This document shows positions 16,804-36,629 of a stretch of DNA of 64,000 bases, piece by piece (position 1 is the stretch's first letter; every line of letters begins with the position of its first letter). This DNA is from a virus, in the IMG/VR virus record IMGVR_UViG_3300042922_000313, positions 3,079 to 67,078 of that record; one strand, given 5' to 3'. The notes under the pieces were generated by a model that searched no databases, was not told where the DNA came from, and saw nothing but the letters and a program-made list of their open reading frames with translations. The position numbers and the translations under genes were made by a program.

Positions 16804-16871
16804 AAGTAGCTCCTTCTTTCATTATAAATTTTGATTTCACTGAAGTAGTGAAAGTTCACATAATAGTGAAA

Positions 16872-16953
16872 CGCTAACGGTAGGATTCGAACCCACAAGC
16901 CTTTCGACAAACGATTTTCAAGACCGCATCCTTTACCACTCGGACACGTTAGC
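16872..16953 (-). tRNA. tRNA-Ser(UGA)
   Basis: Acceptor GCTAACG/CGTTAGC, anticodon loop CT-TGA-AA, long variable arm, GTTCGAATC T-loop; CCA not encoded. Confidence 0.9.
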
Positions 16954-16956
16954 AAA

Positions 16957-17045
16957 CGCAGAATAGTGGATTTGAACCACTACAGCCATATAGCTTACTC
17001 ACAGTTTAGCAAACTGCTCCCTTACCAGATTAGGGTTAATTCTGC
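16957..17045 (-). tRNA. tRNA-Ser(GCU)
   Basis: Acceptor GCAGAAT/ATTCTGC, anticodon loop TT-GCT-AA, long variable arm, GTTCAAATC T-loop. Confidence 0.85.
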
Positions 17046-17046
17046 A

Positions 17047-26111: not shown

Positions 26112-26702
26112 TTGAGACATACTAGCAATGAGGTGATATGTGTGGGATTTGAGCTAGGAATAGGATTATTACTGATTGTTATAATTGTATTCATTGATGA
26201 TATGCATAAGAAGAAGGATTATAGGAGAAGAAAGTCTACTGGAGATAAAGGTGAGAGTGTAGTAGCTAAGAGATTAAATGAATTAGATGGTGATTTTGTT
26301 GTTGAACACAATGTTTACTTTGGCAGAACACAGATAGACCATCTGGTAATTGATCATGAAGAGATGATATGTTATGTGATTGAAACAAAATATTGGGCTG
26401 GTAAGATAAGTGGGAGATGGGATGATGAATATTGGACTCAGGATAAAGGTGGTAAGGTTAGATACTATAAGAATCCGATAAAGCAGAATAGATATCATTG
26501 TACTGTGGTTAAAAGATATTATAGCGGATATAAAACTGTAAATATAGTTGTGTTTGTGGGTAATAGTAATGTGCCAAAGAGTAAATGTATTGTCCAAGTG
26601 GATAAGCTGGTTGATTATATTTATAGGACTTCCAATAAGGTATCTAATAATATATCTAATAGGGTTATAATTGATAGTAATTCAGATTGGTTGTCTATGT
26701 AG
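26112..26702 (+). CDS. NERD-domain nuclease with N-terminal TM helix
   Basis: GDKGE..V, TQIDHLVI, VIETK, KNPIKQN motifs; start probably about 26143 after GAGGTG. Confidence 0.8.
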   Translation: MRHTSNEVICVGFELGIGLLLIVIIVFIDDMHKKKDYRRRKSTGDKGESVVAKRLNELDGDFVVEHNVYFGRTQIDHLVIDHEEMICYVIETKYWAGKISGRWDDEYWTQDKGGKVRYYKNPIKQNRYHCTVVKRYYSGYKTVNIVVFVGNSNVPKSKCIVQVDKLVDYIYRTSNKVSNNISNRVIIDSNSDWLSM

Positions 26703-26939
26703 GTTGAAACCTAGTATATTCATATATTGATATATAATATTTAATCCTTTACGTACTAATTATACTCTTCATCTCCCTTTCTCTCCTTTTTCCCTTTTGT
26801 TTTTTATTTTTACTGAAATAGAATGAAGATTGAAGCGAAAAACAAAGAAGAATCAATAAGATGGATATTGAGTTATATTATGGAAAATTTATGTGAAATA
26901 ATAATTGATATTTAGATGTATAAAATTTAAGATATAGTT

Positions 26940-27680
26940 GTAAGCTTGTATAATGCGATTTAAGACAGTAATTTTAAAAGTGATATTAGATTACCTTAAA
27001 AGAGATTTAGCTTCTGTATGGTCGTTTTAGAGCGTGGAGATAAGTAGCATAAGTGGAATAATTTTCAAATTTTTAATGGTGTCTACTAGAAATAGGGGAT
27101 GCCATTTTTATTTATTAAAAAAGTATTCTCTGGAGAATGTTTTAAGGCATTAAATTTTTATAGGTATATTAGTTATCCTAAAATGTATTTGAGTGGCTCT
27201 GAGAGGCTAATAGACGTATTAAAATGAATAATAGTTGAGTGAGATAGGTGTGGATTTGATAATTGAATAGAAAATGATTTATTTGGCTTGTAAAATAAAC
27301 AATCCAAATGTAATAAATAGTGATTTGGTTAGTGAGAGCTGATGTGATTAAGTTATGATAGTATATATAAAACTATAATGCATAGAATCGATTTTAAGAC
27401 GTTATTTTTCTTTAGGTATGTTATTTATCGTCTGAATAGTTTTAGAGGCTCCTAGAGCATTATAGACGGCTTAGAATTGATTGTAGATGTGGTGGGAAGT
27501 GAGAGTTTGGATGAGATTATAAATTTGAGTAGTTTTATTGATAGATTTGATTGAGTTAGAATATTAACATAATATATATTAAATTATTATTCATAGAAGA
27601 CGTTTTAAGACGATTTTATTTGTTAGGTGAATATTTTATCAAGTGAGTTGATTTAGTGTCTTAAATTTGATTCTGGAAAG
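26940..27680 (+). repeat. Four degenerate ~90-100 bp repeats with inverted ends (TTTAAGAC core)
   Basis: Cores near 26956, 27138, 27389 and 27601, each followed by AGGT/AGTG-atatt-like and mirror-image right arms. Confidence 0.55.
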
Positions 27681-29095
27681 CGTAGATGGTATTGTAGTAG
27701 ATGGGATGTGGTTGAGATTTAAATAAATTGATCAGGTGATACCAGATTGATGATTGATTATACATATACTTCGGTGAGTGGGTAAATATGAGGTTTGAAT
27801 GGTGAGTGAAAAGTGGGAGAAAAGGTAGGAAATATAATGGTTTGATGAGTGTGAGAATGGTTGGATTTGATTGGGATTAGTGGGAGAGAATATTGGATTT
27901 ATGTTAAAAATATACCCTCATTCGACGAAGCCTTTATTTATGCTAGGTGTAGCGATTTTTGAGTCAAAAAGTGCATTTTTATACATTTTCAAAATGGCTG
28001 AAAGTGGCTTAAATAGGGCATTCTCTCGAACTCACTGTCGAACTAAATTGGTGTAAAAATAGGTAATCGATTCGAAAAATGTGAGTTACGTGTGAGTGGA
28101 ACAGATAGGCACTATTCAATGCATAGTAAACCGATATGAAATGTAAACTATGCCCCCTATGCCTGAGATAGGCTTATTTCAAGGCTTTTCAATAGTCACT
28201 TTCGTATTCTGTACTTTTCCTAAAGTGAGAATGACAGCAGAAGAGTAATGAAATGTCAAGTTAGCTCTACATATTATATAATTGTATCTGACCATACCAG
28301 AAATAACGATAATTAGCATATCTATATTGTCAGTTCGCAAATGCAATATATATCTTACATTAACTAAATTCAACAACTAAATTAGTATGTGATTTAGTAA
28401 CTATTTAGTATATAAATTTAGTGAATCAATATTCATAATCATGCATAAATAACCATCATTCTACTCAACTAAGTCCTAGTCAATCCATACCATCACATAC
28501 ATTATATACTACAATAGTATACTATATTAATTACACACTATCTATAATATTCCAATAATTATATCATAATCAAACTGGAATATATCTAACCATACTCACC
28601 AACTAGGATATCTTCACATACCAATTCACTATACTATCATAACCTATCACCATACTATGTATTAAATTATACTAATTCACTATGTTATATATCATACAAT
28701 CCAACTATGCATTAATCTGATCCAATCACCATGAGCAATAGTATTAGACTATCAATCCATCAATCACAATATTATCACACTCACTCAATCAATAGCCAAT
28801 CACAATCCGGTTATCCATTCTTAACCTCGTATATGCCTCATATATCTATTTATTTAATCATCCATACTCTAATACCTAAATCAAAGTTATCTAACTTATC
28901 AGATATACTCGAATATAATCTATATTATCAGACAATAATACTACAATATATAGTAGTAAATATATCATTATATCTTAATAATATACTATATATTGTGTAG
29001 TAAAGCTGCATAATCAAGTCAACTATATCACATATAAAACTATCACATATAACCAATAAATCTCACCTAATCAATATCTTTTGTAATATCTAACA

Positions 29096-29139
29096 TAATA
29101 TATATAAAACATTGTGCAAAATGTCAATGGTATTATAAT
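29096..29139 (+). promoter_or_regulatory. Early promoter with TAATATATATAAAAC box
   Basis: 15-bp box 29096-29110, TTGTGC, GTATTATAATGATAG -10 region. Confidence 0.6.
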
Positions 29140-29192
29140 GATAGTGTGATATAATATAAATAAAAAACGATATTTTTAAAGGAGGTTACAAA

Positions 29193-30382: not shown

Positions 30383-30482
30383 ACAATAAAATTAAGATTT
30401 GATAGGCAGTTTTAACAGGGATATGAAGTCCGAATCTTCACTGTCTACTACGGTAATAAAACCAATATGAGGAGGTCAAGCA

Positions 30483-31226
30483 ATGGCAAGTATAGATTTT
30501 ATAACTAAACGCATCCAAGGCAAGCAAAAAGAAATTGACAAACTAAACAAGAAGCTTGAGAGAATCCAAAAAGCAAAACAATCCAATTGGACAGTTAACC
30601 CTTATTACTATGATGAATATGAATTAAGTAAAACAGAAAGAGAGTTGACTTATGCTATAAAGCAGCTTAATGAATTACAATCTGATTTGCAAAAGGCAAA
30701 CGAAAAGGCAAATAGCCGTAATGTATTAGCAATAACTCAATTTTTAGATGCATGGTTGCAAAGGAATATTGAATTTTATACGGAAGAAAAGAAAAGATAT
30801 AATATAGCATTACAAGATTATTATCAGAACGATAGAGATTACTGCAATTGGTATAATTCACAACGACATAATACTACAATAGAAGAAAGAAAAGCAGTAG
30901 AAAAAACTCATAAAGAATATAGAGTCAGTTTTACTAAATCATGGAGACATGTTACACAATTTGACCACGGCTCAAAAGAATGGCACGAAACAATGCAGAA
31001 CGATTTAAAAGAAGAATATAACCGCAAATATGATTATATCATAGAAAAAACCAATGAAATAGTCGGAACTATTACCGATGCAAGTTATTTGTCAGTAGAT
31101 GCAAACGGAAACTTGAACGGCTATATTATAGGAGATAGAGGAAAAGCAAACGTTAATACAATTGGTGCAGGCGGTTATAACATACAATGTTATCATTTCA
31201 GAACTTTAATTCATGAAATGAAATAA
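30483..31226 (+). CDS. Conserved phage coiled-coil protein
   Basis: GAGGAGG SD; C-terminal TIGAGGYNIQCYHFR motif that I recall from other phage early proteins. Confidence 0.7.
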   Translation: MASIDFITKRIQGKQKEIDKLNKKLERIQKAKQSNWTVNPYYYDEYELSKTERELTYAIKQLNELQSDLQKANEKANSRNVLAITQFLDAWLQRNIEFYTEEKKRYNIALQDYYQNDRDYCNWYNSQRHNTTIEERKAVEKTHKEYRVSFTKSWRHVTQFDHGSKEWHETMQNDLKEEYNRKYDYIIEKTNEIVGTITDASYLSVDANGNLNGYIIGDRGKANVNTIGAGGYNIQCYHFRTLIHEMK

Positions 31227-31228
31227 TA

Positions 31229-31294
31229 GCAGAGGATAGCGGATCAACTTCCGCTATAATGCGACTAGTCAAAGCGTTCCAAGTCCGCATAGAC
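31229..31294 (+). ncRNA. Circularly permuted twister ribozyme
   Basis: GCA-GAG-GA / P1 UAGCGGA:UCCGCUA / UAA-UGC-G-ACU / GCG-U-UC-C-A-AGU-CCGC; both pseudoknots (UC:GA, ACU:AGU) are complementary. Confidence 0.65.
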
Positions 31295-31555
31295 AAAGAA
31301 ATAAAACTAATAGAAACAAGGTTAAATGGTGGAGGTATTGAGAATGAGAAAGTGTAAATTTGGATATTGCACAGTCAATTGTAAATCACCTAAACGGTGT
31401 GCCGATTTTAAAGTAAGTATTGGTTGTAGTTTAGCTATAACAGAAGAAGAATATCAAAAAAGAATATCTGGAAGCAATATAGTTAGTGTAAATTTTAATA
31501 ATAAATAATAGCAGATCAAATCCTTGATTGATGCAAGGTAGAAAGAATGTAAATA

Positions 31556-31762
31556 ATGAGTAACAAGAATAAAGTAAATGTTGATATGTGGTACGGAGAC
31601 AATCAAAAAGAAGCTGATAGAATAGACGTTCTTTTTTATCCAAACGGTTGCGAATACAGAGGGAATATATATAAAGATGGAAAAACAATTGGAGATTATT
31701 CTTGTAAAGATTCTGTATTATTAGAAAAGGCATTTCCACAATTAACCTTTAATTGGGGGTAA
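31556..31762 (+). CDS. Hypothetical protein
   Basis: 68 aa between junction sites 31515 and 31770. Confidence 0.6.
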   Translation: MSNKNKVNVDMWYGDNQKEADRIDVLFYPNGCEYRGNIYKDGKTIGDYSCKDSVLLEKAFPQLTFNWG

Positions 31763-31797
31763 ATAACAAATTAATCAATTATTTGATAGGAGGATAT

Positions 31798-32193
31798 ATG
31801 ACATTTTCAAATATCTACACTGATTTATATGACAATAAATTAGAATTAACACAAAATGAATTGAACTACTTTTATAATACAGTAAATCATATAAAAGAAA
31901 AATTAAACATTGATATTGAAATAGTAAATCGTAATCATGAGACTTTAAAGGGAAAAGAAAAAGAAGCTTATGGAATTTGCTATAAATCATTACATGATAA
32001 TAACGATCTTTTTATTACAATAGATAATTTCTTTATCCACGAATGTTATGAAGAAAAATTCAATAATAAATACAATTTATCTTTTGAATCATTAGAACAT
32101 TGTATATGTCATGAGATAGCGCACATTCAGGAATGGCGACACGGTAAGAAACACACAGAACTAACAGAAATATTATATAATAAGGTAATATAA
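31798..32193 (+). CDS. HExxH zinc metallopeptidase (SprT-like)
   Basis: HEIAH....HGKKH; ATG at 31798 after AGGAGG. Confidence 0.65.
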   Translation: MTFSNIYTDLYDNKLELTQNELNYFYNTVNHIKEKLNIDIEIVNRNHETLKGKEKEAYGICYKSLHDNNDLFITIDNFFIHECYEEKFNNKYNLSFESLEHCICHEIAHIQEWRHGKKHTELTEILYNKVI

Positions 32194-32236
32194 AAAGTGC
32201 ATTTTATGATAGTTTAATGTCGAAAATATTTTAATG

Positions 32237-32282
32237 TAATATATATAAAACCGTTGACATTAACACATACTAGTATTATAAT
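32237..32282 (+). promoter_or_regulatory. Consensus sigma-A promoter with TAATATATATAAAAC box
   Basis: TTGACA 32254-59, 17 bp, TATAAT 32277-82; box 32237-32251. Confidence 0.85.
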
Positions 32283-32350
32283 GATAGTAGATAGTAAACA
32301 GAACAGAAGAACATAGAACAAATTAATATAAATTATAGGAGGGTTTTATT

Positions 32351-36253: not shown

Positions 36254-36271
36254 CAAAAATTACATTTATTA

Positions 36272-36321
36272 TAATATATATAAAACTGAGTATTGACATA
36301 CAATATTAGTAGTATTATAAT
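36272..36321 (+). promoter_or_regulatory. Consensus sigma-A promoter with TAATATATATAAAAC box
   Basis: TTGACA 36293-98, 17 bp, TATAAT 36316-21; box 36272-36286. Confidence 0.85.
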
Positions 36322-36629
36322 GATAGCAACAGAACATATTGAACAAAATATGGAAATGTGGTAGAATTAAATAATGATTGATTGGAGGGCTGAGATGGAA
36401 TACAAAGAATTTATATCACAAGGTAATGATTGTTTAATTTACAGAACAGTAAGCATTTTACCAATAGGAAATAAGTTTGCGGTCATAACTTTAACTCGAT
36501 TGTCAGGAGCATGGATTAACAACAATAATCTTGGCACTGATACAGTAAATTTTGATACAGAGAAAGAAGCAACAGAGTATTATGATAGCATCGAATATTG
36601 ATTTTATAAGAAGAAGGTGAGGATAAGTT

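Follow-up and report, generated by a model that had tools for sequence, protein, structure and literature searches.

A 61-base element at positions 31228-31288 of the + strand is, with a probability that we put at roughly 0.78, a genuine twister ribozyme in the P5-open permutation, built without a P3 or P5 stem and predicted to cleave itself. It was found in a stretch of 64,000 nucleotides (the window) taken from a 67-kb record of an uncultured soil phage, where it stands between two genes of the same strand, the arrangement typical of ribozyme-punctuated phage operons. Ribozymes between phage genes have been known since 2011, and the window twister is a clean further example. It adds one more well-supported, unannotated copy to the many in phages and leaves the knowledge of the class unchanged. 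A search of the literature, with most subscription journals outside its reach, returned no paper devoted to twisters in the genomes of phages.

Architecture of the element and its match to the family model

The twister class was reportedly described by Roth et al. in 2014. According to a review of crystal structures (PMC5408937), its members fall into types P1, P3 and P5 by the position of their ends, possess two pseudoknots and about ten conserved nucleotides, and are cut at a U-A step.

The Rfam covariance model Twister-P5 (RF02684) matched 31228-31288 on the + strand over all 58 of its 58 positions (model 1-58), with a score of 35.1 bits. The E-value was 6.8e-6 in a search of 321 nt, 0.0014 for the 64-kb window searched with 4227 families, and 3.4e-7 for this single family on the 67-kb record. 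No other ribozyme family reached E<=1 in the 64-kb window. The full-length match agrees with the permuted (P5-open) core order claimed by an earlier, sequence-only reading of this DNA, which had also proposed the Rfam search as a check, and it does so at a score 2.5 bits lower than the gathering score of 37.6 bits. A gathering score is an operational cut-off that belongs to one model rather than to the RNA. Run with its default gathering thresholds, the Rfam scan reported two tRNAs only, and the twister is absent from it because its score falls just below 37.6 bits.

The element starts about 2-3 nt 3' of the stop codon UAA (31224-31226) of the upstream gene, with U and A in between. The 5' strand of P2, GCA (31229-31231), pairs with UGC (31260-31262). 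This makes a helix of three pairs, and a fourth is mismatched (A31228 opposite G31263). The outer P2 pair is unpaired in 25 of 50 distinct phage twisters among the matches listed. Next comes the 3' strand of L1, GAGGA (31232-31236), for which roles were assigned by alignment to the literature (PMC11662667, PMC5408937): G31232 takes the general-base position, A31233 is a partner in the A.A pair, and G34, G35 and A36 (positions shortened to their last two digits) form the 5' strand of pseudoknot T1. P1 is a hairpin of 7 bp at 31237-31256, in which UAGCGGA (31237-31243) and UCCGCUA (31250-31256) enclose the loop UCAACU. Cleavage is predicted directly behind it, between U31257 and A31258; together with the conserved A31259, these residues (31257-31259) align with the UAA of the Rfam consensus. 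P2, the GAG after it, P1, the UAA motif and the cut site had been named in this form by the sequence-only reading, and all of them can be read from the sequence and from the Twister-P5 alignment.

The segment 31260-31265 holds the 3' strand of P2, the unpaired G31263, and A64 and C65, the 5' strand of pseudoknot T2. The L2 linker behind it, UAGUCAAA (8 nt, 31266-31273), lacks a P3 hairpin and leads into P4 and L4 at 31274-31288, which consist of GCG (31274-31276), UUCCAAGUC and CGC (31286-31288). Within L4, the U.A positions are filled by U77 and A82; the 3' strand of T1 is made up of U78, C79 and C80, A81 comes next, and G83 and U84 supply the 3' strand of T2.

Both pseudoknots are complementary in the window twister. 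T1 comprises three pairs, G34-C80, G35-C79 and A36-U78, and A33 and A81 stand where the A.A pair requires them; the proposal of UC:GA made from the letters alone had captured a complementary part of it. For T2, proposed as ACU:AGU, the pairs A64-U84 and C65-G83 hold, and the third, U66-A82, is possible, but the family alignment does not support its conservation. The end of the element, previously set at 31294, needs to be moved, as that position lies 6 nt beyond the last paired base (31288). Every nucleotide that two of the papers (PMC5408937, PMC11662667) mark as critical is kept. At the cut this is U-A-A; behind P2, a G followed by an A; in L4, the closing G-C and both members of the U.A pair; and finally the A that makes the A.A pair. 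The minimum-energy fold yields P2, P1 and P4 by itself (-17.8 kcal/mol, z -2.56), and 2 of 200 shuffles were as good.

With the type-P5 family (RF02684), the window twister shares the order of P2 5' strand, GAG-containing L1, closed P1, U-A-A, P2 3' strand, L2 and P4/L4, as well as the conserved letters of L1 and L4 and both pseudoknots. It departs from the family in its third T1 pair and its first T2 pair, each of which is A-U and not G-C, in an extra C at the P4/L4 junction, in a P2 of only three pairs, and in the absence of a P3/P5 stem. As far as can be judged from its letters, its active-site architecture resembles that of the crystallised twisters Osa-1-4 of Oryza sativa and env22 (PMC5408937), with the invariant G-C extending P4, the U.A pair, the two bulged T2 nucleotides, and a T1 of three Watson-Crick pairs plus A.A. 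The review deals with these two as separate constructs; unlike them, the window twister is P5-open and has a bulge in P4.

The irregularity of one nucleotide in P4 that the sequence-only reading had pointed out is borne out, the strands being out of register by one when the canonical 10-nt L4 is assumed. P4 has three pairs and one extra C (85 or 86) beside the loop. It may be drawn with GCG/CGC enclosing a 9-nt loop, or with G76-C85, a bulged C86, and then C75-G87 and G74-C88. According to the crystal-structure review (PMC5408937), P4 is prolonged by the near-invariant G-C and by the U.A pair; the two nucleotides that bulge from between these pairs make T2, and the other four L4 nucleotides form T1 by three Watson-Crick pairs and the A.A pair. 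The L4 residues G76, U77, A82 and C85 are present in the window twister. Because of the one additional C after L4, what remains of P4 is only C75-G87 and G74-C88, two pairs that are offset by the bulge and no longer in register. In the middle column of P4, the window twister is the only unpaired copy of the 50 distinct ones among the matches listed.

Comparison with other phage twisters and relatives of the upstream gene

A pattern of three core hexamers (GCAGAG, UAAUGC and CAAGUC) occurred in at least 124 stretches of viral contigs. Many of these pattern matches are due to chance, and a simple P1/P4 filter was passed by 36 distinct sequences among the matches listed. Twelve of the filtered sequences, including the window, were used as seeds for a phage-twister covariance model of our own, R1. 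The three hexamers are conserved by construction in this comparison set, because the search pattern fixed them. R1 gave a single match in the window, the twister itself, with 48.7 bits, a score to be read with the window being one of the 12 seeds. In 100 + 62 sources, R1 at E<=1e-5 produced 56 matches, 50 of them distinct, among those listed.

With the nested helices aligned to R1's own structure, standard pairs filled 94.6% of 800 pair cells in the 50 distinct twisters among the matches listed, compared with 68.3 +/- 1.1% in column shuffles (0 of 500 reached the observed value) and 22.5-40.2% when the partners were slid. The covariation score of this 50-copy alignment of listed matches was 0.653 vs 0.152, and all five of the five modelled P1 pairs covaried. 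T1, which lies outside the R1 model, was paired in 99.3% of cells in the 50 listed copies, and double changes were present in three of its three pairs. The third T1 pair was G-C in 43, A-U in 5, C-G in 1 and unpaired in 1 of the 50 distinct copies among the matches listed. For T2, located by a script as the purine-C dinucleotide after P2, the first pair was A-U in 37, G.U in 9 and G-C in 4 of the same listed copies, with no mismatch.

The third T1 pair also separates high from low Rfam scores. Among the matches listed, the copies with A-U are those of the window and of loci L003, L016, L054 and L078, and they score 35.1, 35.1, 34.2, 31.6 and 30.2 bits, respectively; all five of the five are thus below 37.6 bits. 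Of the complete copies listed in which this pair is G-C or C-G or has a single mismatch, 23 of 24 are above the cut-off. Counted over 15 further loci, 23 of 27 Twister-P5 matches among those listed exceed 37.6 bits, and the four that do not are the A-U copies L016, L054 and L078 and one copy truncated where its locus ends. Covariance models give no credit for pseudoknot pairs and count compensated letters as two mutations. The low Rfam score of the window twister can therefore be ascribed to its compensated pseudoknot letters, which cost bits. L003 has a regular P4 and an equal 35.1 bits, so that the shortfall of the window does not come from decay or from the P4 defect. A doubly compensated pseudoknot pair loses enough bits to put a sound twister below the Rfam cut-off, which offers a concrete reason for a missed annotation.

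Closeness to a stop codon is common in the comparison set. With upstream ORFs of at least 50 codons, 40 of 45 twisters among the matches listed start at -2 to +9 nt from the stop of that ORF, and the next ORF after listed phage twisters usually lies within tens of nucleotides. A P5 stem was sought in the flanks and rejected: the mean duplex energy of the 14-nt flanks of 49 phage twisters among the matches listed was -2.16 kcal/mol, compared with -1.96 +/- 0.23 kcal/mol for mismatched flanks. The value for the flanks of the window twister itself was +0.6.

In some phage contigs, type-P5 twisters are crowded into dense arrays on a single strand. At least seven lie within about 4.8 kb of one 10.6-kb contig (L041/L042/L043), and L055 has five in 3 kb (one cut by the locus end), L034 four, and L066 three. 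Nearly all array twisters start at, or no more than 2 nt from, a stop codon. Mixed ribozyme classes within one phage operon were also seen. A pistol ribozyme of 59 bits, above its cut-off, is located at L022:2524-2588, about 1 kb downstream of a twister, and a twister-P1-like match of 42.1 bits (cut-off 67.2) at L013:1232-1299, 200 nt upstream of a twister-P5.

The gene upstream of the window twister (30483-31226, + strand, stop UAA at 31224-31226 from the ORF list) encodes a protein of 247 aa. The protein belongs to no PHROG, had nothing above the cut-off in Pfam and no fold match at E<=0.001 in the PDB. Its AlphaFold model (pLDDT 84) is helical apart from a small beta part at the C terminus, and the family (window and L002-L010) has a long helical N-terminal part and an invariant C-terminal motif, TIGAGGYNIQCYHFRTL. 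Among IMG/VR contigs, the protein has 11 relatives, two of them close (85% and 84% identity). In L003, where the flanking protein is 84% identical, a twister begins 6 nt past the stop of the same gene (Twister-P5, 35.1 bits). It has GCAGAGGA, UAAUGC, ACUAG and GUUCCAAGUC in common with the window; the letters of its P1 are unrelated and still paired, and it has a P3-like hairpin at the position of the L2 linker. It is evidently the orthologous copy in the same slot.

In L002, a twister of 51.8 bits (above the cut-off) precedes the gene and none follows it. The nine loci L004-L012, at 31-51% identity, contained no ribozyme at E<=1. The complete 139,975-bp genome behind L002 has exactly one twister, the 99-kb record behind L003 has one, and the single twister was the only ribozyme in the 64-kb window and in its 67-kb record (CheckV 42% complete). 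Three more distant records (G003-G005) had no twister at E<=0.01. Alignment to the upstream twister of L002 had drawn attention to a possible decayed second twister at 30400-30470. This candidate was discarded, as 125 of 2000 shuffles aligned locally with at least the same score, and a search of 30400-30470 with R1 and filters off returned nothing.

Environmental sequence runs contain the same region, with window positions 30483-32193 present in four runs as soil or silage DNA contigs and no RNA run listed among those that contain them. The window version is identical over 31059-31403 in soil contigs of two runs, and over 31205-31355 in a contig of a third soil run. In other soil contigs, an L003-type twister follows the same gene end. 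A third soil version has sequence past the stop without a recognisable twister start, and in one soil contig the first half of the twister (31229-31262) was matched behind a different upstream sequence. In several soil variants, homology breaks at 31225-31229, the boundary of stop codon and ribozyme, and the edges of the ribozyme may coincide with mosaic junctions.

Alternative explanations for the element

The element might be a decaying relic, catalytically dead or very slow, in which the extra C and the short P4 prevent docking of T1 and T2. We consider this unlikely, although several observations point in its direction. The P4 irregularity is unique among the 50 distinct copies of the matches listed, the score is under the Rfam cut-off, and the slot is fluid in relatives, with the L002 twister before the gene and a soil variant with unrelated sequence past the stop. 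In a published cleavage survey (PMC11662667), about 94% of natural twister candidates were active and imperfections of P1, P2 and P4, including bulges, were broadly tolerated; an imperfect loop-proximal P4 pair reduced cleavage, with a mean fraction cleaved of 0.58 vs 0.76. This published reduction is partial, however, and in the window twister the catalytic and pseudoknot positions are intact, two pseudoknot pairs being compensated rather than broken. The score argues little for decay, as L003 reaches the identical value with a regular P4, and identical copies in soil DNA (two runs for the longer stretch, a third for the shorter) also speak against a relic. Because P4 defects are mostly tolerated, yet loop-proximal ones cleave less on average, we grade activity of the window twister as likely, not certain.

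Much less probable is a structured RNA or DNA element with a use other than cleavage, such as a 3' stabilising hairpin or a recombination boundary, in which the twister letters would be incidental. P1 is a stable hairpin 10 nt past the stop, and the homology of the soil variants ends exactly at the boundary of stop and ribozyme. A plain hairpin, on the other hand, needs neither the conserved letters of L1 and L4 nor two compensated pseudoknots. No U-run follows P1, so that it is not an intrinsic terminator, and a ribozyme that marks the border of a cassette can still be an active one. That AT-rich DNA between genes came to resemble the twister consensus by chance can be regarded as effectively refuted. 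The match is below the gathering score of the family, but it is full-length with an E-value that stays at 0.0014 after correction for 4227 families and 64 kb, the orthologous element of L003 has a compensatory P1, and both departures from the consensus are paired changes that recur in other phage twisters.

Predicted transcription unit and possible role

The genes of the window include those for a portal, a large terminase, an exonuclease, FtsK-like and ParB-like proteins, integrases and a head protease, and the region of about 26-39 kb holds small + strand genes without known families. The gene that follows the twister (31331-31508, + strand) encodes a Cys-rich product of 54 aa, with the Shine-Dalgarno sequence GGAGG at 31331-31335, the ATG at 31344 and the stop at 31506-31508. 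Its ribosome-binding site is the next one, 42 nt past the end of the twister.

A promoter-like block on the + strand at 29097-29144, which belongs to repeat families D2, D10 and D13, consists of the AT-rich ATATATATAAAAC followed by GTATTATAATGATAG and has a weak -35 hexamer. By consensus resemblance only, it is likely the start of the transcription unit holding the twister. Resemblance to the consensus likewise suggests that a block at 32230-32287 (+ strand), with an AT-rich element and a perfect TTGACA-17-TATAAT, is likely the start of the next unit. Three blocks (about 29.10-29.14, 32.23-32.29 and 36.27-36.33 kb) have ATATATATAAAAC and the GTATTATAATGATAG -10 region in common, and the last two carry the perfect TTGACA-17-TATAAT. 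Together, these sites resemble a set of related strong promoters that include an UP-like element. The ATATATATAAAAC blocks as such extend over 29089-29144, 32230-32287 and 36265-36326, and the motif is also present at 26529, 27366, 29690 and 35637. Over the whole window, 96 promoter-like sites were found, compared with 78 expected.

No terminator-like site was found on the + strand between the blocks at about 29.1 kb and 32.25 kb. Because of the promoter-like blocks and the lack of such a site between them, the twister would lie some 2.1 kb from the start of a predicted transcription unit of small genes, about 3.1 kb long and deduced at the level of consensus sequences. The description of the upstream gene as early, made in the sequence-only reading, is only plausible; it has its basis in the small genes without family and the strong sigma-70-like promoter blocks.

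The most likely role of the window twister would be self-cleavage of a polycistronic mRNA between two genes. Its RNA would be transcribed within the message of about 3 kb, and P2, P1 and P4 would fold and then be locked by pseudoknots T1 and T2. An internal transesterification would follow at U31257/A31258, with G31232 in the general-base and A31258 in the general-acid position. The upstream fragment would contain the 247-aa gene and end in the P1 hairpin, 31 nt past the stop, with a 2',3'-cyclic phosphate; 31200-31257, its predicted 3' end, folds with -12.9 kcal/mol (z -2.66). The downstream fragment would start with a 5'-hydroxyl, 73 nt before the next ribosome-binding site; the P4 hairpin would lie close to this end, and the three small genes that come next would be on the same fragment. 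Processing had been announced for a point 3 nt past the stop, which is where the ribozyme starts, but the cut itself would fall 31 nt past it. As the cut would split the 247-aa gene from the next three genes, each half of the operon message would have a fate of its own. The analysis shows the match in sequence and structure, the covariation, the orthologous copy and the placement beside the genes; we infer catalytic activity, co-transcription with the flanking genes and any effect on RNA stability or translation.

In a reading that we regard as doubtful, a ribosome terminating about 2 nt before the twister would cover the strands of P2 and T1 and keep it from folding, so that translation of the upstream gene could control the cut. 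A switch that hides the next ribosome-binding site was considered as well and rejected. When the 3' product or the uncleaved RNA is folded, UUCC of L4 pairs with the GGAGG region, but these folds (z +1.12 and -1.20) are no better than shuffles.

In prophages, multiple hammerheads flank genes, and cleavage of long phage RNAs into mRNAs the length of one gene has been proposed (Perreault et al., 2011, PMC3088659). According to another source (PMC6765202), twister, pistol and other ribozymes lie near phage genes; it suggests that bacterial twisters and hammerheads may process polycistronic transcripts, and it describes the biological role of these ribozymes in bacteria as 'largely elusive'. The window twister resembles these phage and prophage ribozymes (PMC3088659, PMC6765202) in its intergenic position, its orientation on the same strand, the presumed long phage transcript and the proposed processing role. 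In contrast to the hammerhead clusters of prophages (PMC3088659), the record of the window and those of two relatives hold one twister each, and the twister tracks one gene. With only one twister in the 67-kb record (42% complete), the picture of an operon chopped into single genes does not apply. The glmS ribozyme (PMC6765202) is comparable as a self-cleaving RNA in an mRNA of bacterial type whose cut alters the fate of the downstream fragment. However, glmS has another fold, needs GlcN6P and is found in a 5' UTR, and the window twister gives no sign of a ligand.

In the three related phage records, the sole twister found adjoins the same 247-aa gene, before it in one and after it in two. As the twister can be on either side of the gene in these phages, cleavage would always define one end of the mRNA of that gene. 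A tentative idea, which we regard as doubtful, is that the twister is a dedicated controller of this one gene rather than a general punctuation mark of operons. A ribozyme that occurs singly and beside one and the same gene in three related phages makes a simpler system than arrays of many ribozymes for testing the effect of the cut.

The 10-nt sequence UAAUAGCAGA, composed of the stop codon and the first letters of the twister (31224-31233), recurs at 31506-31515 after the stop of the next gene. A second twister at this place was rejected, given that 31470-31620 contained no twister match at E<=10 and no match to R1. The recurrence may be a scar or a coincidence.

Two other features of the window may be mentioned. 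A stretch of about 2 kb (26703-28730) is without a 90-codon ORF on either strand, and the ORFs listed from 27000 onward have no more than 65 codons; it follows the divergent junction of a - strand block and the + strand block of small genes. On the - strand, at 16871-17046, two adjacent tRNA-Ser genes have the anticodons TGA and GCT.
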